Virus record (IMG/VR): IMGVR_UViG_2671181114_000018
DNA: 29,945 nucleotides
DNA from: a virus
Lineage: Duplodnaviria; Heunggongvirae; Uroviricota; Caudoviricetes
Direction: 5' to 3' (one strand)
The position numbers were made by a program, and so were the translations under genes. The notes beneath the pieces were generated by a model. That model saw only the letters and a program-made list of their open reading frames with translations. It was not told the DNA's origin and made no database searches. Below, piece after piece: positions 1 through 29,945 of this stretch (position 1 is its first letter; the number at the start of each line of letters is the position of its first letter).

Positions 1-1365
1 TTATGGACGGAGGCAATACTCGGCAATTCGAAGCGCTGAAATGTGCTTTTCATGGATCATGTCGTTCCCGCATCCGCATTCATTCTCACATGGTTCTCGC
101 ACCCATACACCATCGCTATTTTTTCGGTAGAACCATCCAGGACGAAAACCTGCGTTCTGCATATACATCCCTGGGTGAACGACAACTAATTCACATACTT
201 CAATCAGGTCAGTCTCATGGCATATGATTCCAATTCCCTTCTGATACACGGCCTGAAAGTCTTTATTGACATGTTTTATTAGTTCATCTATCTCAAAAGC
301 GACGTAATTTTTTCCTTTAAGAAGCCGCTCTATCTTTGGCAAGCGCAATGGAGAATTGTCATTATCTGTACCAAAGAGAATTATGCTGGGTGAACTTATT
401 GTAACGCCGCCTGTTAATTCGCCTCTCATCGTTTCAATAGAGTCAAATAGCTCAGCTATTTTCCCACCACGATAGAAAGCAATACTAGGAGAAACGTTTT
501 TCACATAACTATCATGATATTCAGGTAATTCAAGTGACCGCTTGAATACAGGAATATCTATATTTGGATCCCTTAATTGTTCAACTTCCCGCCAAGGTAA
601 GTCTAATAACTCCTTGAGGATAGGATCCTCCGTAACTGACGGGAATAAGGAATTTGTATCAGTGATTGCATTCAATACGGCATATTGTTTTAAAAGTGAC
701 CGACTAGCTTTTATCTGTGCAATAAAGCAATTTTCTGGAACTGGCTCTCCATATAGCGGCCCTAGTAACCAAGCATCTTGGGCCTGCATTCTGGGTCGGA
801 AACCCTTAATTTCAATATCAGAAAGATCAACCAAACCAAGACGAGATGCTAGTGATTTATCTAGAATGTAGAGATATCCATCTCCATCTTCATAATAATA
901 CCTTACCGCTTTTTTTATCAGCCATATGGGGTTTTCATTACAGTCTTCGCACATGTCTATCTTTGGCGGTGGAGATGGTTTTATTGACAGTGAACATTTA
1001 TGACTCGCAAACCAAGCGGCAACTGCAGGGTTAGTGGTACAGTCAACATAGAATGATCTCCATCCATAGTGTTGTAACAGTGCCTGTACATATTCCAGAT
1101 CGTTTGCATGGCTACCAATTACTCCCTCAAGCACACTTGCAGCATAGCTAATCCACTTTATCATCGTTGACTTGTTACATTCATCGCGATCAAAAGAAGC
1201 AAGTACGGATGGTACCTCCTGCTTACCATAGAGAGAATTTTGACCTCGAAATAATACATTGTCACCAAACTGTGCAATTACAGCTTCCAGCTCACTAATA
1301 GTTCTGACCTCAAATTGTTCCAATTCTTCCCTCTCCCCTGAATTCGCAATCATGGCATCTTGCAC
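1..1365 (-). CDS. Hypothetical accessory protein with N-terminal FRG-like motif and Cys-rich C-terminus (candidate defence/cargo gene)
   Basis: Complete 454-aa ORF (stop = revcomp of nt 1-3). Contains 'VLFRGQNSLYGK' near the N-terminus, which I recall as the FRG domain signature, and Cys clusters (CEDCNENP; PCENECGCGNDMIHEKH). Visibly AT-rich compared with the phage structural genes. Function not known from sequence. Confidence 0.45.
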   Translation of the reverse strand: MQDAMIANSGEREELEQFEVRTISELEAVIAQFGDNVLFRGQNSLYGKQEVPSVLASFDRDECNKSTMIKWISYAASVLEGVIGSHANDLEYVQALLQHYGWRSFYVDCTTNPAVAAWFASHKCSLSIKPSPPPKIDMCEDCNENPIWLIKKAVRYYYEDGDGYLYILDKSLASRLGLVDLSDIEIKGFRPRMQAQDAWLLGPLYGEPVPENCFIAQIKASRSLLKQYAVLNAITDTNSLFPSVTEDPILKELLDLPWREVEQLRDPNIDIPVFKRSLELPEYHDSYVKNVSPSIAFYRGGKIAELFDSIETMRGELTGGVTISSPSIILFGTDNDNSPLRLPKIERLLKGKNYVAFEIDELIKHVNKDFQAVYQKGIGIICHETDLIEVCELVVVHPGMYMQNAGFRPGWFYRKNSDGVWVREPCENECGCGNDMIHEKHISALRIAEYCLRP

Positions 1366-1439
1366 GCAAAATTTATGAACACCGACTCTAGTACTATGTT
1401 AACAAATGTATCAAAAACTTCCCCTGTCATTTGAGTTAG

Positions 1440-1728
1440 CCATCGGAAAACCATCACAACCATCACGCCTCTTAAAATCATATCTTAACCACATGAATAA
1501 TATAGATAAATGTTGTGACGGTAAAACCATCACAAAACATAACGTAAACCGTCACACCCAATAAATTCAGTAAGTTATAAAACAGAGTTGTGATGATTTA
1601 AGACCGTCACACTGTGATGCTGTTGTGATAGTTTTGTGATGGTTTTCAATACCATTATTTACTTATATATATCATATAGATAGATACTATTATTAAATTT
1701 TGTGACGTTTGTGACGGTTTTCCGATGG
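1440..1728. repeat. Iteron-like array: about 12 copies of octamer TGTGA(C/T)GG / CC(A/G)TCACA in both orientations, bounded by 19-bp inverted repeats, with an AT-rich core
   Basis: Read directly: arms ccatcggaaaaccatcaca (1440-1458) and tgtgacggttttccgatgg (1710-1728) are reverse complements with one mismatch. Octamers at about 1451, 1460, 1514, 1526, 1549, 1589, 1604, 1613, 1624, 1635, 1701, 1710. AT-rich stretch around 1650-1700. No ORF of 60 aa or more in the region. Confidence 0.8.
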
Positions 1729-2345: not shown

Positions 2346-2370
2346 AAAAAAGCCCGCATTATGCGCGGGC
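2346..2370 (-). terminator. Rho-independent terminator closing the minus-strand late (tail) operon
   Basis: Plus strand aaaaaa-gcccgc-attatgc-gcgggc: 6-bp GC stem (2352-2357 / 2365-2370) with 7-nt loop. On the minus strand the hairpin is followed by TTTTTT, 12 nt after the stop of the 2382-4085 gene. Confidence 0.6.
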
Positions 2371-2381
2371 TGATGGGATGA

Positions 2382-4085
2382 TCAGGCGATTATCTTCTGG
2401 TACTTACTCCGGGTCTGACCTGCCTTCTCCGCCGTCTGTGTGAATGCGCCGGCATTGGTTGGCGTACCAACGCTGGGGTGTGAATGGCTCGCACACTGCT
2501 GCGCCAGCTCGGCCAGTAAATCAATGGTGTCCAGCATCATGGTCAGCGTGTTAACGCTCTCACTGCCAATATGGACGGTTGGCCCCATAATCTGCTGACC
2601 GCCCGATGCCACCGATTTACGTAATGCAGCAATCTTTTCTGTCAGGGTTCCCCCCACATCAACATCCACGGCACCGGCCACTTTCGTGGATTGTTTGCCG
2701 GTTATATCGGCTTCGTCATTCCCCTCAATGCTGGCCAATCTGTTGCCCTTCACGGCCTGGCTATAATCACCGGCACTGACCTGCTGAATGGCTCCGGCCA
2801 TCAGGGTGGCGGTACCCAGCACCGTGGTTTTATCAGTGGCTTTAACTGTCGTTTCACGGCTGACCAGATCACGCTGTTCTGTATCGGCTTTAACCGTCCG
2901 CGCCATCGATGTTTCGCTGATGGTCTGATCGGTCTGCCGTACCCAATCGCCAGCCTGGGTAACGCGCTGCGACACTTCAGCCCGCTGCTGTTGCAGCTGC
3001 TCACCGGGCTTAACATCCGGCAGGCTGGTACCATCCGGCAGTGTCTGCCTGATAAACGGTTTATCAGGTCGCCCCCCGGTAAACGCAACTTCAACCAGCG
3101 TCCCTTCTGGCGGGAACTGGAACATGCCAGAGTCATTCCCGGCCATAGGTACCGGCAGCGGCACCGCTGAATAAACCGGCGTCTGGTTGTCCGGGTTGCC
3201 GTCTGCATCAAGCAGCTGCACATCAACGGCATAGCGCGGCCGGAACGGATCGGCAAAATTACCACTTTTCACAGTCTCACTGGGTGCCACCACTCTGGCC
3301 AGTTTTGGCAGGTGCAGCCCGGAAGCCAGTTCCGGGTAATGGCTTTCAATCTGGCGCTGTGCCGGTGTTTTCTGTAATGGCTGACCTGTTGCGCGGTTTC
3401 TGGGTGTCCAGGTGATGGCCATGGTGTCATTGGTCAGATGAACTTTGGTCACGCGTTCTCCGTTCAGCTCCACACCCGGCCGCAGACTCTGGATCACTGG
3501 CAGCGTCATGGAATGACCGCCAGCCGCCCCCTGGCTGAACTCTGCCGGGATATCAACCGGACGATCGGCGAACATCGCTTTTTCCGCGCCGCCCACATAC
3601 AGGGAACCATCCGGCAACTGGTACCAGATGTAATCCGGGATACTGAATGCTTTGCCCAGATTATTCAGCAACTGATAGCCAGTGCCATTGTGGGTGAAAT
3701 GGGGGATCGGCTTATCGCTGTATGGGGCATCCGGCACACTGACAGCAATTCCGCTGTTTTCCTCCAGCCAGATGGCTACCTTGCGCAAAGTGGGATGCTG
3801 AAATGAACATGGCCACATCCTTTCAAATACGCCGACCAGCTCGCGCACAAACAGACGCTGAAAACCGTTTTCGGCGGGTTGTGCGCGTTCCACATAGCCG
3901 GTAAACCAGCGCAAAAGCAGATCGGAATAACCCACATCCAGCCGCACCAGTTTCCCGGTGTAATCCGTGGCTGTCTGTGCGGTGATAAACCCCCGGCCAC
4001 AGCTGCTCAGCTCCAGCACCAGGCTGGCATCAGCCAGATGAACTTCATCCGTTGAAAGGTACAGGCGTTTAACTGGTTTCATCAT
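2382..4085 (-). CDS. Baseplate central hub-spike protein (gpV/gp5-type OB-fold domain with N-terminal extension; VgrG-like arrangement)
   Basis: 567 aa, last gene of the late operon. 'EGTLVEVAFTGGRPDKPFI' resembles the gpV/gp5/VgrG OB-fold signature (xVLVxFxxGDxDRPxV); C-terminal 'CASHSHP' resembles the HxH metal-binding spike apex. From memory; no HMM run. Confidence 0.5.
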   Translation of the reverse strand: MMKPVKRLYLSTDEVHLADASLVLELSSCGRGFITAQTATDYTGKLVRLDVGYSDLLLRWFTGYVERAQPAENGFQRLFVRELVGVFERMWPCSFQHPTLRKVAIWLEENSGIAVSVPDAPYSDKPIPHFTHNGTGYQLLNNLGKAFSIPDYIWYQLPDGSLYVGGAEKAMFADRPVDIPAEFSQGAAGGHSMTLPVIQSLRPGVELNGERVTKVHLTNDTMAITWTPRNRATGQPLQKTPAQRQIESHYPELASGLHLPKLARVVAPSETVKSGNFADPFRPRYAVDVQLLDADGNPDNQTPVYSAVPLPVPMAGNDSGMFQFPPEGTLVEVAFTGGRPDKPFIRQTLPDGTSLPDVKPGEQLQQQRAEVSQRVTQAGDWVRQTDQTISETSMARTVKADTEQRDLVSRETTVKATDKTTVLGTATLMAGAIQQVSAGDYSQAVKGNRLASIEGNDEADITGKQSTKVAGAVDVDVGGTLTEKIAALRKSVASGGQQIMGPTVHIGSESVNTLTMMLDTIDLLAELAQQCASHSHPSVGTPTNAGAFTQTAEKAGQTRSKYQKIIA

Positions 4086-22590: not shown

Positions 22591-23598
22591 TTATTTGCTT
22601 TTATTTCCATCATTATTAGGATGATTTACAGGAGTAAGGCCTGAGGCTACATCATTAGCAGTTTGAAGACTGGTAGGAATCAGACCGGGCCAATTTGCCC
22701 CATTTAGTCCCCAATTGAGTTTAGCTAAATTCTCACCAGGCCAGGTTGATTTCGCAGAATTTAAATCAAGTCCCTGAAGCCCCTGAAGCCCCTGAACCCC
22801 CTGAAACCCCAGAGAACCTAAAGTCGGCCTGGCAAAAGGCAGTGTATTCTTAGATATTTCCTGATTAATATCGTCTAATTTATTTTGATTCGCTATAATT
22901 TTGGCATTCAAATCCATCAATTCTTTTTCTTTTAATTCCAATTCCGTCCTCACCTTCGAAATTGAGTCCATAGCATTATAATAAGAATTGGTAACTGACT
23001 GAACCTCTTTTCCCTTTTCCTTTATTAACTCATTAATATCCCTGAGCTTTACCTGAGCGTTATTATATTTATCTTCAAGCGCGTTTGTATCATATTCGAT
23101 AGCTTTATTTGCCTTTTCAGCATTTAACCTCGCTTTTGCGTCTGCATATTCATACTCGACATTTTTATTTATTTCGTCTATTTTTAAATCAAGAGCACTC
23201 TGTTTTCTCTTACTATCATTTGTACTCTTTTTCGTAAGCACTCCATTTTGTATTACATCAACAACATATGAGATAAAAGGAGTGCCAACTACAAATATAA
23301 TTGAGGCAACAAATGGATACCAAAACGTATGAGTATGAGGGATGCTAATTCCAAAAAAGACACTATTTGATGGTAACGCCTTTATTTTTTCAATACGTTG
23401 TTCTATGTCCAGACTGAACGAGAATAAGAGTAATAGAGTGCGGTCCCAGTTACAGAGAATCCAAGAGGATATGAAGCATAGAAAAAATGGATTTGATAAC
23501 CGTTGATTAACAGCTTTCACTACCGGTTCAGTTGTAACTGATTTTACCGCATCCAAAGCTTTATCTATTGTTTCGCTCATTTTAGGAGTATCAACCAT
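22591..23598 (-). CDS. Accessory membrane-anchored coiled-coil protein with C-terminal collagen-like G-x-Q repeats (candidate superinfection-exclusion/defence cargo)
   Basis: 335-aa ORF (start may be the internal Met 'MSETIDK'). Hydrophobic N-terminal segments ('FFLCFISSWILC', 'VASIIFVVGTPFISYVV'), long K/E-rich heptad region, C-terminal 'GFQGVQGLQGLQGL'. Visibly AT-rich; sits between the replication gene and ogr/portal, the position of tin/old in P2. Confidence 0.5.
   Translation of the reverse strand: MVDTPKMSETIDKALDAVKSVTTEPVVKAVNQRLSNPFFLCFISSWILCNWDRTLLLLFSFSLDIEQRIEKIKALPSNSVFFGISIPHTHTFWYPFVASIIFVVGTPFISYVVDVIQNGVLTKKSTNDSKRKQSALDLKIDEINKNVEYEYADAKARLNAEKANKAIEYDTNALEDKYNNAQVKLRDINELIKEKGKEVQSVTNSYYNAMDSISKVRTELELKEKELMDLNAKIIANQNKLDDINQEISKNTLPFARPTLGSLGFQGVQGLQGLQGLDLNSAKSTWPGENLAKLNWGLNGANWPGLIPTSLQTANDVASGLTPVNHPNNDGNKSK
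22772..22807. repeat. In-frame tandem repeat, 4 units of 9 bp (ccctgaagc x2, ccctgaacc, ccctgaaac) inside the cargo gene
   Basis: Read directly from the plus strand; on the minus strand the units encode the G-L/F/V-Q triplets of the collagen-like tail. Confidence 0.9.
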
Positions 23599-23714: not shown

Positions 23715-26369
23715 TTAATCTCGTTTAAAAATCCAGCATCGGAATGTATCCGGCATCCGTTGCATATCCCCTTTACCACGGTTATGGCGCTCACTAACTG
23801 CGCTGCGCGTGGTGCTTTGTCTGATGAACCGACGTTCATTACCGTTTTTAAGCAGCTTTTTGATTTCCGTTAAAGTGAACGGAATCCGCTGCCGGTGTGC
23901 TGCTGCGACTTCTTCCATATGATTGAAATTAATTGCAATTTCATTTTCATCTGATGAGTGATTGACGCCATAGGGTGCCAGTTCATCCAGGTAATCAAAC
24001 AGTTCCCAAAACTCCTGCACCATCGGGTGATCCTTTTTAAGCGCCTGACAACGTTCAATAGCCAGCGCGGTGATGGCTTCGCGAGTTTTTTCTATGCGTT
24101 CAACCGGTACCGGCACAACAAGCGCAAGCGCCTCCAGCAAACCCACAAGCTGCGCGTGATTCTTTGCAATACGGATATGGCGAATACTACTGTTAGATTC
24201 CAGCGCATTCCTGGCGCGTTCGTATCCCTTACCGAACGTCTGCATGATTTCTTTCTCACGCATGGTGGCCAGTAGTGTGAATCCCGATACCTGGCTAACA
24301 GGGAGTTGTTCCAGCCGCTCCGCAGCGTGGCGCGTCTGAATAGACTGCCCGCGCTTGTCGGTATAGATATGGATAATACGCTCCAGAAACGCCTTGCTGC
24401 CGTCTGTATCAGCGTTCTGCGCAATCACAATACTGCCCCTGAATGGCGGTTCGTATGTTTCGTTATTGTTGGACTTTATCCCCACAGCACGGGAAGCGCG
24501 GCCGTTATACAATGATTTCAGTTCATCCCAGTCAAAAGCACGTTGCTTGGCGTTATCCGTTGTGCGGTCGCCTTCGATTAACACAACCGGCAGGTTGCCG
24601 ACCTGGGCAAAGTTGCGCCCACGCGCTGCGGCCGTGGACTTAGAAGGATCAAAACCTTCATATTCTTCACGGCCGGCGAGCTTCCACAGAAATTCAATCA
24701 GTGTAGATTTACCTGTCCCCGGTTCACCCACGATTTCCAGAAACGGGAATGACTTATCGCGCTCCCGGATTTGTTCGGCAAAAAGCGACCCCAGCCAGAA
24801 TGCTAGCGCCACGTACCCCTTTTCACCAAATGCCGTCCAGATATCGTCAATCCAGCCCGTGGTAAATTCATTCAGCTTTGGATTCAGATCCAGCGATGGT
24901 GTCAGGCTCAGGCTTTTTACACTGGCGTGATTGATTTCAAAATAGTCTTCATCGTTCATCTCATACAGCCGGCCATCGCACACGGCCACACGGTTAAACA
25001 GCCACGCTGAATAATCTTTGTTGTAGCCGATAAAGTTCTGTGTCTTAACCTCTTTTATTTCAGGAAGCCGCATCTGGATGAACTTATCCAGTTGCTTGGT
25101 GCTGCCGGTGTATACCGCCCCTTTGGCGATATGCAGCAAACGTTTCTTAAACTCGGCGGAGCTGGTGAGCTGGTTCGCCGTGAAGGTATCCTTCACCGCT
25201 GGCCGGTTCGGCATGTTGACCTTAACGTAATACCAGGACTCGTCAGTAGGTTCAGAACGCTGGAAATAGAGCGGAGTCAGCCAGCAGTTAGCTATTTCTG
25301 TCACGCCGCCAGATTCTTTCACCGCACGTTCTTTGGCTTCCCAGTCCTGGATAACTTCGGTACCGGTATTACTTATGCGCTCATAGGCTCGCATGTACCT
25401 GTCCAGATCCAGTTCAAACCAGAACATGCGGGAATTATGTTCAAAATAGAACGAATGCCACTCATTATGCTGATGCATGAGCAGCGCTTTTTCAGTCGGA
25501 CTTTTCGCCAGCAGAATATCGCCATAGTAGCGATAATTTTTGATGTCCGATTTACTGAACCGGCCACGCAACAACAAGTCATTCCAGTCCAGACAGGAGG
25601 ATGATTTCACCGGCTGCGCCGCACGAACTTTCCAGCCGGCATCCTCACTACGTGCAGCAAATGCCAGCGTGTGCTTTGTGCCGGCCTTATCGCCGTCAAA
25701 TGCCCATACAAGGCGTGGGCGCGGTTTTTCGCCCAGTTCTTTGGCCAGCGTATCCAGTGCGGCCAGAGGGTAGTTGTTACTGCTCAGTGTGGCAACTGCG
25801 GGTAAACCCGCCTGGCAAAGACTCAGCGCATTAAATATCCCCTCAGTGATCCAGATTTCATTCACTTCCAGCAGGTTGACAGAAGGTGGTACCCACCAAT
25901 GGCCAACATAACTCCCTTTAATATTGGCTTTTTGCTTACCAAAGCGTTGGGGCTGGTCAATAATGCGCTCCCACGTCGCACCACATGCCAGCTTAAATTT
26001 GACTGTTGCCGATCCCATGCCATCTTTAACAAACGCGCCCTGGGTGAAAATGCCTTTCAGTGGTTCGGTATCCAGCCCTCTGGCCTCACGCAGATACGCC
26101 TCAGCAGCTGCGTGTGGGGTTTCAGGAGTGTCCTGATACCGTTTAGACCAGTCCTCAAAAATATCCGGGTACAGCTCTTTAACAACGACCTGATGGCCGC
26201 AGTTATTTTCGCGACCACACTTCAGAATCCAGGGCTTATCTATGCTGGTGAATAATTCGCGCTTACGACACTTAGGGCATACACCCTGCTGCAAATACTT
26301 ATCCCGCTCTTTAAACTCAAAATCCTGAACAAGACGGCGCACAACGTCCTGTTGTATCGTTGCGTTCAT
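23715..26369 (-). CDS. Replicative primase-helicase, P4 alpha-type (zinc-binding primase + D5-like SF3 helicase)
   Basis: Track ORF 23715-26405 (896 aa); probable start 'MNATIQQ' (26369). N-terminal zinc-ribbon Cys pairs (CPKC...CGRENNCGH), Walker A 'GEPGTGKST' in the helicase part; size and domain order resemble P4 alpha. Confidence 0.8.
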   Translation of the reverse strand: MNATIQQDVVRRLVQDFEFKERDKYLQQGVCPKCRKRELFTSIDKPWILKCGRENNCGHQVVVKELYPDIFEDWSKRYQDTPETPHAAAEAYLREARGLDTEPLKGIFTQGAFVKDGMGSATVKFKLACGATWERIIDQPQRFGKQKANIKGSYVGHWWVPPSVNLLEVNEIWITEGIFNALSLCQAGLPAVATLSSNNYPLAALDTLAKELGEKPRPRLVWAFDGDKAGTKHTLAFAARSEDAGWKVRAAQPVKSSSCLDWNDLLLRGRFSKSDIKNYRYYGDILLAKSPTEKALLMHQHNEWHSFYFEHNSRMFWFELDLDRYMRAYERISNTGTEVIQDWEAKERAVKESGGVTEIANCWLTPLYFQRSEPTDESWYYVKVNMPNRPAVKDTFTANQLTSSAEFKKRLLHIAKGAVYTGSTKQLDKFIQMRLPEIKEVKTQNFIGYNKDYSAWLFNRVAVCDGRLYEMNDEDYFEINHASVKSLSLTPSLDLNPKLNEFTTGWIDDIWTAFGEKGYVALAFWLGSLFAEQIRERDKSFPFLEIVGEPGTGKSTLIEFLWKLAGREEYEGFDPSKSTAAARGRNFAQVGNLPVVLIEGDRTTDNAKQRAFDWDELKSLYNGRASRAVGIKSNNNETYEPPFRGSIVIAQNADTDGSKAFLERIIHIYTDKRGQSIQTRHAAERLEQLPVSQVSGFTLLATMREKEIMQTFGKGYERARNALESNSSIRHIRIAKNHAQLVGLLEALALVVPVPVERIEKTREAITALAIERCQALKKDHPMVQEFWELFDYLDELAPYGVNHSSDENEIAINFNHMEEVAAAHRQRIPFTLTEIKKLLKNGNERRFIRQSTTRSAVSERHNRGKGDMQRMPDTFRCWIFKRD

Positions 26370-26408
26370 ATATAATCCATGTGTGAAATGATGAATAAAA
26401 GGCAAAAA

Positions 26409-26629: not shown

Positions 26630-27199
26630 TTATTTCACACTGGCTATTTTAACGAGATAAGTCCAGACGTAAGACACTAGTTTAGCCTGATAAATAGCGT
26701 CATATAGTGCATGGTGCGGTGTACCTTCAAATTTAATAATATTTTTGATGTTCAAACCTAAATCTTTGGCCAGCGCATTTATCGTCCTGACATCCCGGTC
26801 ATTCCAGTAATTCCACATCGGGCTTAACAAGCCTACCTTATTTGCAGCATGGCGGAGGATAACGTTATCAAACGACGCTCCATTACCCCAAACCTGTAAA
26901 TGATGTGCATCAGTGAGTTCACTGATAAAGTGGAAAAGGTCAGAAATGGCCGTATCCAGCGGACAATTCGCATCATTAATAATCTCGCTCCTTGCTTCGG
27001 AGGACTGACGCAGCCACCACAGAACTGTATCGGCTCCCATAGTGCAGTCGTAATCAACGCTACTTGCAAGACTGACACGGCGATAGAAAGTTTCCCCCAT
27101 TTCACCCGTTTCCGGATTAAATAATACAGCGCCAATAGCGGTAATTGCTGCCGTTGGTTTGTTATCCATTGTTTCAAGATCAATCATTAAATGTTTCAT
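26630..27199 (-). CDS. 3'-5' exonuclease (DnaQ-like fold)
   Basis: 189 aa beginning 'MKHLMIDLETMDNKPTAAITAIGAV...', an Exo I-type motif (D-x-E); later 'HHALYDA' resembles the Exo III motif. Common in P2-like early operons. Confidence 0.65.
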   Translation of the reverse strand: MKHLMIDLETMDNKPTAAITAIGAVLFNPETGEMGETFYRRVSLASSVDYDCTMGADTVLWWLRQSSEARSEIINDANCPLDTAISDLFHFISELTDAHHLQVWGNGASFDNVILRHAANKVGLLSPMWNYWNDRDVRTINALAKDLGLNIKNIIKFEGTPHHALYDAIYQAKLVSYVWTYLVKIASVK

Positions 27200-28348: not shown

Positions 28349-29362
28349 ATGACAGTTAAGAAACTCGATGATGGTCGGTATGAAGTGGATATCAGACCTG
28401 CCGGGCGCAACGGAAAGCGCATCCGCAGGAAGTTCGACAAAAAAAGCGAGGCTATCGCTTTCGAAAAACACACGCAGTACAACCACCACAACAAAGAATG
28501 GCTTTCGAAGCCGACAGACAAGCGGCGTCTGTCAGAGCTAACGGCTATATGGTGGGAGTTGAAAGGAAAGCACGAGGAACACGGAAAATCTAATCTTGGG
28601 AAAATTGAAATATTTACCCGGATAACTGATGACCCCTGTGCGTTCCAGATAACGAAAGCACTTATCAGCCAGTACAGCGCTACCCGCAGAAGCCAGGGTA
28701 TAAAGCCATCAAGCATTAACCGGGATTTAACCTGCATAAGTGGCATGTTCACCGCATTAATTGAGGCTGAATTGTTCTTCGGTGATCACCCGATACGCGG
28801 TACGAAAAGACTGAAAGAACAGAAGCCGGAAACCGGCTATCTGACACAGGATGAAATTAGCTTGTTGCTTTCGCAACTGGACGGAGACAACAAGAAGATT
28901 GCGATTCTTTGTCTTAGTACCGGCGCAAGATGGGGTGAAGCCGCGCGGCTGAAAGCGGAGAACGTGATCCATAACCGCTGTACGTTTGTTAAAACCAAAA
29001 CGAACAAACCACGCACTGTGCCAATTTCTGACGAGGTGGCAAATATGATCGCCAACAACAAGCGAGGCTTTCTTTTTCCGGATGCAAACTATCCAGCATT
29101 CAGACGGTTGATGAAGGAACTGAAACCTGATCTTCCGGCCGGACAAGCAACCCACGCATTGCGTCACAGCTTCGCAACCCATTTCATGATTAACGGTGGG
29201 AGCATCATCACGCTGCAACGTATCCTTGGCCATTCGCGAATTGAGCAAACTATGGTCTACGCACACTTTGCCCCGGAATACTTGCAGGACGCGATCGCCC
29301 TCAATCCGTTACGTGGAGGAATTGAGGTTCAGAGTGTCCACACAGTGTCCACAGACGAGTAA
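28349..29362 (+). CDS. int: Tyrosine integrase (P2 Int-type)
   Basis: Track ORF starts at 28286 with TTG; real start is Met 'MTVKKLDDGRYEVDIRPAGRNGKRIRRKF' at 28349 with GGAGGG upstream. Catalytic C-terminal 'HALRHSFATHFMINGGSIITLQRILGHSRIEQTMVYAHF' (R..H-x-x-R...Y). Downstream of C as in P2. Confidence 0.9.
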   Translation: MTVKKLDDGRYEVDIRPAGRNGKRIRRKFDKKSEAIAFEKHTQYNHHNKEWLSKPTDKRRLSELTAIWWELKGKHEEHGKSNLGKIEIFTRITDDPCAFQITKALISQYSATRRSQGIKPSSINRDLTCISGMFTALIEAELFFGDHPIRGTKRLKEQKPETGYLTQDEISLLLSQLDGDNKKIAILCLSTGARWGEAARLKAENVIHNRCTFVKTKTNKPRTVPISDEVANMIANNKRGFLFPDANYPAFRRLMKELKPDLPAGQATHALRHSFATHFMINGGSIITLQRILGHSRIEQTMVYAHFAPEYLQDAIALNPLRGGIEVQSVHTVSTDE

Positions 29363-29446: not shown

Positions 29447-29469
29447 CCCTTACACGGGCTTATTTTTTT
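29447..29469. other. Phage attachment-site core (prophage right junction), P2-type core
   Basis: cccttacacgggcttattttttt is the reverse complement of the P2 att core AAAAAATAAGCCCGTGTAAGGG as I remember it; about 85 bp downstream of int, within a hairpin (gtaaggg...cccttac) plus T-run. Confidence 0.6.
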
Positions 29470-29627: not shown

Positions 29628-29945
29628 TCACTCTCCACATTTGAATGTCAGACGAGCGACACCATGTAATCCTACACCTTCTGTCTTCAGCTCAACTATT
29701 TGCATTTTTTTGCCCTGAGTAACACAGAAATGAGTTGCATCATTTTTTACTATATTTTCTGCACCAGATATTCTACCCCTGGCTAAAGAAGCTTCGGCTT
29801 CGGTGTAGTATTGGTTATCGAGTTTACGCTGAATATTACTTTTATATGCAAGACCAAATTTACCGATACTTGTCTCATCATTATGCACAGCACAACCAGA
29901 CATAATAAAAATACTAATTAATGATATAGCAGCTATCTTTTTCAT
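29628..29945 (-). CDS. Small lipoprotein (probably flanking, non-phage gene)
   Basis: 105 aa starting at the window edge; signal peptide with lipobox 'IMSGC' (MKKIAAISLISIFIMSGCAV). AT-rich; outside the att core. Confidence 0.55.
   Translation of the reverse strand: MKKIAAISLISIFIMSGCAVHNDETSIGKFGLAYKSNIQRKLDNQYYTEAEASLARGRISGAENIVKNDATHFCVTQGKKMQIVELKTEGVGLHGVARLTFKCGE

Follow-up and report, generated by a model that had tools for sequence, protein, structure and literature searches.

In phage P2, cargo genes are carried at the tin/old and Z/fun loci, and the concept of cargo hotspots in P2-like prophages, that is, variable slots in a conserved backbone that hold alternative defence genes, is reportedly that of Rousset et al. 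in 2022. Among toxins of the ADP-ribosyltransferase (ART) superfamily, DarTG and RES-Xre (MbcTA) are multi-gene systems in which a separate antitoxin or chaperone accompanies the toxin. The FRG domain is said to have been reported as a potential effector in a 2020 Journal of Bacteriology paper from the Aravind group. The Frg clade is placed in the ART superfamily and is a predicted NADase effector of prokaryotic immunity (Aravind group, PMC9503650; also PMC12522546). This class (Pfam PF08867) is a computational one that comprises many architectures, and the two-domain form described below is given no function in it. We found no experimental study of any FRG protein in the searchable literature. 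Among defence databases, PADLOC includes FRG proteins as PDC-S15, which has the standing of a candidate and not of a validated system. An earlier note on the DNA studied here had called the function of the FRG domain unknown, a statement that is partly outdated by the predicted NADase assignment (PMC9503650) and by the candidate PDC-S15.

The stretch of DNA that was analysed (the window; 29,945 nucleotides) contains a gene for an FRG protein at its left end. This gene belongs to a Salmonella P2-like (Peduoviridae, Evevirus-like) prophage as a self-contained accessory gene, and its slot has the last tail gene on one side and the attachment site on the other. The relevant features of the window are as follows.

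1..1323, minus strand: coding sequence of the FRG/ART and zinc-domain protein, 440 aa, with a probable TTG start at 1323-1321 and the stop at 3-1.
673..1323, minus strand: N-terminal FRG domain of ART fold, residues 1-217.
4..672, minus strand: C-terminal family-specific domain, beta-sheet-rich with a final helix, residues 218-440.
43..78, minus strand: putative zinc knuckle of conserved residues, C416-x-C418-x5-H424-x2-H427.
1385..1414, minus strand: sigma-70-like promoter candidate, TTGATA-18-TAGAGT, called by consensus match alone (9/12).
1451..1717, no strand assigned: eight TGTGAYRG iteron-like repeats in both orientations, belonging to the phage backbone and not to the cargo.
2351..2371, minus strand: intrinsic-terminator-like hairpin that ends the late (tail) operon.
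2382..4085, minus strand: last tail gene, 567 aa, at the inner edge of the cargo slot.
29334-29354, plus strand: two Int arm-type repeats GTGTCCACA at the 3' end of the integrase gene, at the opposite prophage junction.
29447-29469, plus strand: duplicated half of the CyaR terminator at the opposite junction, with the att core GGCTTATTTTTTT at 29457-29469.

The earlier description of a complete, AT-rich ORF was borne out. The frame is open on the minus strand from 1 to 1365 with the stop codon at 1-3, and the GC content of the gene is 41%, compared with 53% for the phage late and structural genes at 2382-22545. The length of 454 aa given at that time is correct for the longest possible ORF, which begins at a GTG at 1365, but not for the likely protein. 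A GGAGAGGG ribosome-binding site is present upstream of the TTG at 1323 (approximately 1327-1337), homologues of ~435 aa all start with M-[EK]-Q and align to this TTG, and the 440-aa form is annotated by NCBI on more than 1000 Salmonella contigs. Judged from these features, the true start is probably TTG 1323 and the protein 440 aa long, and for the same reasons residues are numbered from that codon. The promoter candidate at 1385-1414 falls within cargo-specific DNA (1366-1429), and homology to E. coli relatives starts at 1430. The FRG gene thus probably has its own promoter, as far as a consensus match can tell, and a hairpin follows its stop codon.

The DNA between the cargo and the tail operon conforms to what had been described earlier. 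The FRG gene lies beyond the late-operon terminator, the hairpin at 2351-2371, which follows the last tail gene (stop at 2382). The 567-aa product of this gene scored 23.0 bits against Phage_base_V, just below the cut-off of 23.8, and gave a weak, near-threshold match to Gp5_C, which suggests a baseplate spike or hub protein. An iteron-bearing region is indeed located upstream of the ORF: 12 copies of TGTGAYRG occur in the window, a number reached by 0 of 100 shuffles, and 8 of them fall within 1451-1717. This stretch is AT-rich (33% GC) and 86% identical to E. coli Evevirus-type prophages. At the same identity of 86%, the non-coding backbone from 1430 to 2400 matches E. coli prophages as well as Escherichia phage ESSI2_ev239, an Evevirus of the Peduoviridae. 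Together with the Toprim primase gene (23715-26405), the repeats at 1451-1717 may indicate a replication origin or a crr-like site.

The remainder of the backbone is P2-like, with an Ogr/Delta zinc-finger gene, an HP1_ORF34 baseplate gene, a tail fibre gene and a tyrosine integrase, as well as a P4-alpha-like Toprim primase and an Rv2179c-like exonuclease. On the basis of ORF sizes and order, the capsid and packaging block appears to resemble P2 Q-P / O-N-M-L. The exonuclease gene, in the early region at 26630-27199 on the minus strand, encodes a 189-aa Rv2179c-like 3'-5' exonuclease (Pfam, 1.7e-72) and adjoins the primase gene. A second AT-rich orphan ORF (34-40% GC, 335 aa) is located between the Ogr and primase genes at 22591-23598 on the minus strand, presumably at roughly the position of the P2 tin/old cargo. 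Its product had no Pfam match and a weak LmuB-like match (4.9e-5), and the ORF might represent a further gene of accessory or defence type.

The exact FRG protein is encoded on many Salmonella enterica contigs, and the left-hand neighbourhood was inspected on 25 of them. In full-length contexts the gene order is tail genes, the gene for the 567-aa spike-like protein, ~1 kb of non-coding DNA, the FRG gene and, on the opposite strand, host yegQ (trhP). On the contig L003 the distance from the FRG stop to yegQ is 281 bp, and the following features were located in this interval.

L003 11384-11407: hairpin after the FRG stop.
L003 11416-11435: inverted pair of Int arm-type ATGTGG(A/T)C repeats, mirroring the integrase-side GTGTCCACA repeats of the window (29334-29354).
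L003 11479-11563: gene for the small RNA CyaR (Rfam, 99 bits), 114 bp past the FRG stop.

The matching prophage junction in L003 lies 110-130 bp past the FRG stop. The duplication of half of the CyaR terminator at 29447-29469 indicates that the prophage is integrated in the 3' end of cyaR and that the FRG gene is inside the att sites. The earlier note had predicted that any partner gene would lie to the left of the window and had proposed an inspection of the upstream neighbour. On the 25 contigs with the exact protein no such partner was found: the region outside the window contains the hairpin, the Int arm sites, the att core in cyaR and host yegQ, and nothing else. At the right end of the window, a 105-aa ORF without a family match (29628-29945) lies beyond the att site, and by its position and size it is putatively host yegR. 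Some Salmonella genomes contain a decayed copy of the prophage (L004 1-11365) whose portal gene is truncated and whose tail-fibre portion is in fragments, but in which the FRG gene is intact, and decayed prophages of this type hint that the cargo is retained after phage decay. The possibility that the gene is a conserved host housekeeping gene, which the same note had raised against its own proposal, was rejected. The gene is absent at the DNA level from 5,426 complete E. coli genomes, and other cargo replaces it in relatives.

To sample the slot in relatives, we used the gene for the 567-aa spike-like protein as an anchor, which yielded 80 related IMG/VR loci, and extracted the downstream ORFs; removal of evident host genes left 41 non-redundant cargo proteins. 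In E. coli relatives, which are integrated at raiA and not at cyaR, homology to the window ends at 1430 and the slot is occupied by an acyltransferase gene in the opposite orientation. Across the 80 relatives the cargo forms more than 40 unrelated clusters. These comprise AAA_15/AAA_21 ATPases matching OLD, GajA, AriA and PtuA models, AIPR and Abi_C proteins, a reverse transcriptase, a C5 methylase with TdeIII endonuclease, PIN_8 and PIN_12 proteins, RES (an ART-superfamily toxin), Fic and HIRAN proteins and AT3 acyltransferases. A short canonical FRG protein of 285 aa is also among them (L092 8516-9370; also in L089), and its match to PDC-S15 has an E-value of 2.3e-32 over model positions 44-267 of 276. 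The slot thus accommodates FRG genes of two subfamilies, and that of the window is one alternative cargo among many.

Most of the slot cargoes are defence-type genes and some are lysogenic-conversion genes, and the claim that a prophage extremity of this kind is a site for defence or conversion cargo holds for these relatives, in which the hotspot contains both. The FRG gene itself lies between att sites, deviates in GC content from the phage late genes and is replaced by unrelated genes in relatives, all of which identifies it as prophage cargo. The slot resembles the P2-like hotspots in being a variable position in a conserved backbone with alternative defence genes, but it differs from the classical P2 positions, as it is situated between the last baseplate or spike gene and attP, beside the iterons.

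The presence of an FRG domain, which the FRGQ motif had suggested and for which a profile search had been proposed, was confirmed. The score of the protein for Pfam PF08867 was 33.2 bits (E=1e-7; cut-off 25), over residues 36-123 in the 454-aa numbering and profile positions 2-88 of 94, and the FRGQ motif corresponds to residues 25-28 (window 1240-1251). In 73 sequences with identities down to 24%, the invariant residues of the N-terminal domain are R26 G27 Q28, Q84 H85 Y86 G87, D94, F105, R178 and Q182. An AlphaFold model built from a 46-sequence alignment was confident (pLDDT 89.9, pTM 0.87). In this model residues 1-217 adopt an ART fold with a split beta-sheet, not that of a PD-(D/E)xK nuclease, in agreement with the published computational placement of Frg (PMC9503650; PMC12522546). 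The closest structural neighbour of the FRG-domain model is Tpt1, and other neighbours are LT, pertussis toxin S1 and ArtA. R26 sits in the first core strand (23-28) and D94, together with T/S96, in the next one (93-96); Q182 immediately precedes a later strand (184-187). Mapped by their order in the model and not by superposition, R26, D94 and Q182 would recall how R / S-T / E are laid out in R-S-E ARTs. The position of the classical ART catalytic Glu is held by a Gln (Q182), followed by an invariant Ala, and for this reason the predicted NADase or transferase activity is not assured. No solved structure was retrieved when the family profile was used for a sequence search, searches of NCBIfam and PHROGs gave no informative match, and Foldseek against viral structures (BFVD) gave no match at E <= 0.001.

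The C-terminal half of the protein is specific to the family. The fold of residues 218-440 had no match among solved structures, and this domain was found only fused to FRG, in ~170 clusters. At E <= 0.001, the profile of the domain retrieved 170 clusters out of 1.84 billion representatives. Every full-length protein with the domain is 430-495 aa long and has it at ~215-435, and FRG was present at the N-terminus in 10/10 divergent members tested, in 9/10 of them above the Pfam cut-off. The two-domain architecture is thus fixed and the family small. Several Cys clusters had been proposed to bind zinc, and part of this proposal stands. C416, C418 and H424 (C-x-C-x5-H) are invariant in 73 divergent sequences and H427 is nearly invariant among closer homologues. 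Of the 12 cysteines, no others are invariant, although C49 nearly is, and the 'MCEDC' cluster is not conserved as Cys. The conserved C-x-C-x5-H motif would be expected to bind zinc, and C49 of the N-terminal domain, conserved to at least 90%, is a further candidate ligand.

Full-length homologues with 43-87% identity occur in Gamma- and Alphaproteobacteria. A tblastn search of 50,697 deposited phage genomes gave no homologue, from which we conclude that carriage by phages is rare, and 5/72,556 plasmids carry one. Homologues with 43-60% identity stand alone in varied settings, as follows.

Klebsiella/Raoultella (L011): P2-like prophage, with the tail-fibre gene on one side and the gpU/tape-measure genes on the other.
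E. coli: within an ICE, flanked by tra genes.
Rhizorhabdus: adjoining an integrase.
Serratia: near TerB, BrxC-like ATPase and DEAD helicase genes, a large helicase and HipBA.
Aeromonas: near a CHAT protein and an AAA_15 ATPase, in an element with a tyrosine recombinase.
Brucella: near a CBASS cyclase and a methylase.

The Klebsiella homologue presumably occupies the Z/fun-type position. At L011 8111-10172 the FRG homologue adjoins a SIR2_2 and nucleoside 2-deoxyribosyltransferase pair, a candidate for another NAD+/nucleotide-related defence module. No conserved neighbour, and hence no adjacent antitoxin, was found across seven genomic contexts, and since no neighbour recurs, the gene appears to act alone.

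The proposed comparison with PADLOC gave matches for the N-terminus only. In PADLOC-DB v2.0.0 the protein matched PDC-S15 candidate models only, apart from an insignificant match to BrxA (E=0.062), and there was no significant match to proteins of validated anti-phage systems. The best match, PDLC04938 (PDC-S15), had an E-value of 3.7e-9 and covered model positions 40-153 of 276, corresponding to the N-terminal ~110 residues. As only the FRG core was matched, we do not file the protein as a member of PDC-S15. The two share an FRG domain with FRGQ / QH(Y/H)G / D-x-[ST] / WFA motifs, as seen in an alignment to canonical short FRG, and both are single genes in defence hotspots, the true PDC-S15-type short FRG of L092 occupying the same slot. 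They differ in that the window protein has an extra 220-residue zinc domain peculiar to the subfamily. DarTG and RES-Xre also differ from the window protein. No sequence similarity to them was detectable, the window protein has Q182 in place of the classical catalytic Glu, and a single polypeptide without a conserved neighbour stands here instead of a toxin with its separate antitoxin.

Our best reading is that the FRG gene would be a stand-alone, NAD+-using abortive-infection or exclusion gene. That it is a single-protein anti-phage or anti-mobile-element defence expressed by the lysogen we judge narrowly probable. This reading is favoured by an enzymatic-type domain fused to a family-specific one, the stand-alone gene, its own promoter-like site and the occurrence in hotspots and defence islands; a defence role for the cargo, one of the two that had initially been proposed, is the most plausible one given the gene neighbourhoods of the homologues. 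The FRG gene would be expressed in the lysogen, and the C-terminal zinc domain would keep the FRG domain inactive until a cue of infection is sensed. The released FRG/ART domain would then use NAD+, either by hydrolysis, leading to depletion, or by ADP-ribosylation of a protein or nucleic-acid target, and replication of the invading phage would be stopped, possibly at the cost of the cell. More tentatively, and with a probability that we set well below even, the protein could be the founding member of a new single-protein immune system, in which a novel zinc-sensor fold activates an ART-fold enzyme of an atypical (R / D-x-T / Q) type whose chemistry may differ from that of known ART defences. 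By analogy with Tpt1, the closest structural neighbour, such chemistry might for example be a modification of nucleic-acid ends.

Other roles can be envisaged for an ART-fold protein encoded by a prophage. The protein could benefit the phage in its lytic or lysogenic programme, by modifying a host protein or nucleic acid in the manner of T4 Alt, ModA and ModB, or by acting against host defences; we regard this as unlikely. Slightly lower in our ranking is a self-contained toxin or addiction module, with an ART toxin similar to DarT, RES/MbcT or ParT and the C-terminal domain as its antitoxin in cis, so that the mobile element would be stabilised. Classical ART toxins, however, have a separate adjacent antitoxin gene, which is not present here, and the fixed fusion and the location in defence islands fit a sensor-effector defence equally well or better, although toxin-antitoxin and abortive-infection roles overlap and are not mutually exclusive.

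We consider it improbable that the gene is lysogenic-conversion or virulence cargo encoding an ART toxin for eukaryotic cells, comparable to Salmonella ArtAB, PltA and SpvB. In favour of this are the Salmonella enterica host, the presence of LT, pertussis toxin S1 and ArtA among the structural neighbours of the model, and the O-antigen-type acyltransferases, which are conversion genes, in the same slot of relatives. The N-terminus, however, is not hydrophobic and has no signal-peptide-like stretch, no B-subunit gene is adjacent, close full-length homologues are found in marine and soil Alpha- and Gammaproteobacteria (among them Rhizorhabdus, Roseovarius and Bradyrhizobium), and the conserved Cys and His residues are of a cytoplasmic type that suggests zinc binding. 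The chance that the protein is a PD-(D/E)xK-type nuclease effector, as a 'D..D.EIK' stretch had weakly suggested, is very slight, because this stretch, seen in this one protein, falls in a variable region of the family alignment where the fold is that of an ART, and neither domain model has a nuclease-like fold, nor did Pfam, NCBIfam or PADLOC give a nuclease family match. On these computational grounds the nuclease reading was rejected. The probability left over by these readings we assign to something else.

The FRG domain is a predicted NAD+-using immune effector, yet it is only a candidate in defence databases. The gene described here is a compact test case, being 1.3 kb long with a probable promoter of its own, and its slot is one in which recognised defence genes are otherwise found. 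Its form, defence-like cargo at the end of a prophage, is ordinary, yet it offers a clean entry to an uncharacterised domain family. Work on this gene could link a domain that has long been without a known function to a defined defence mechanism, and the same work could give a role to a new zinc-binding domain and extend the map of Peduoviridae cargo hotspots in enteric pathogens.
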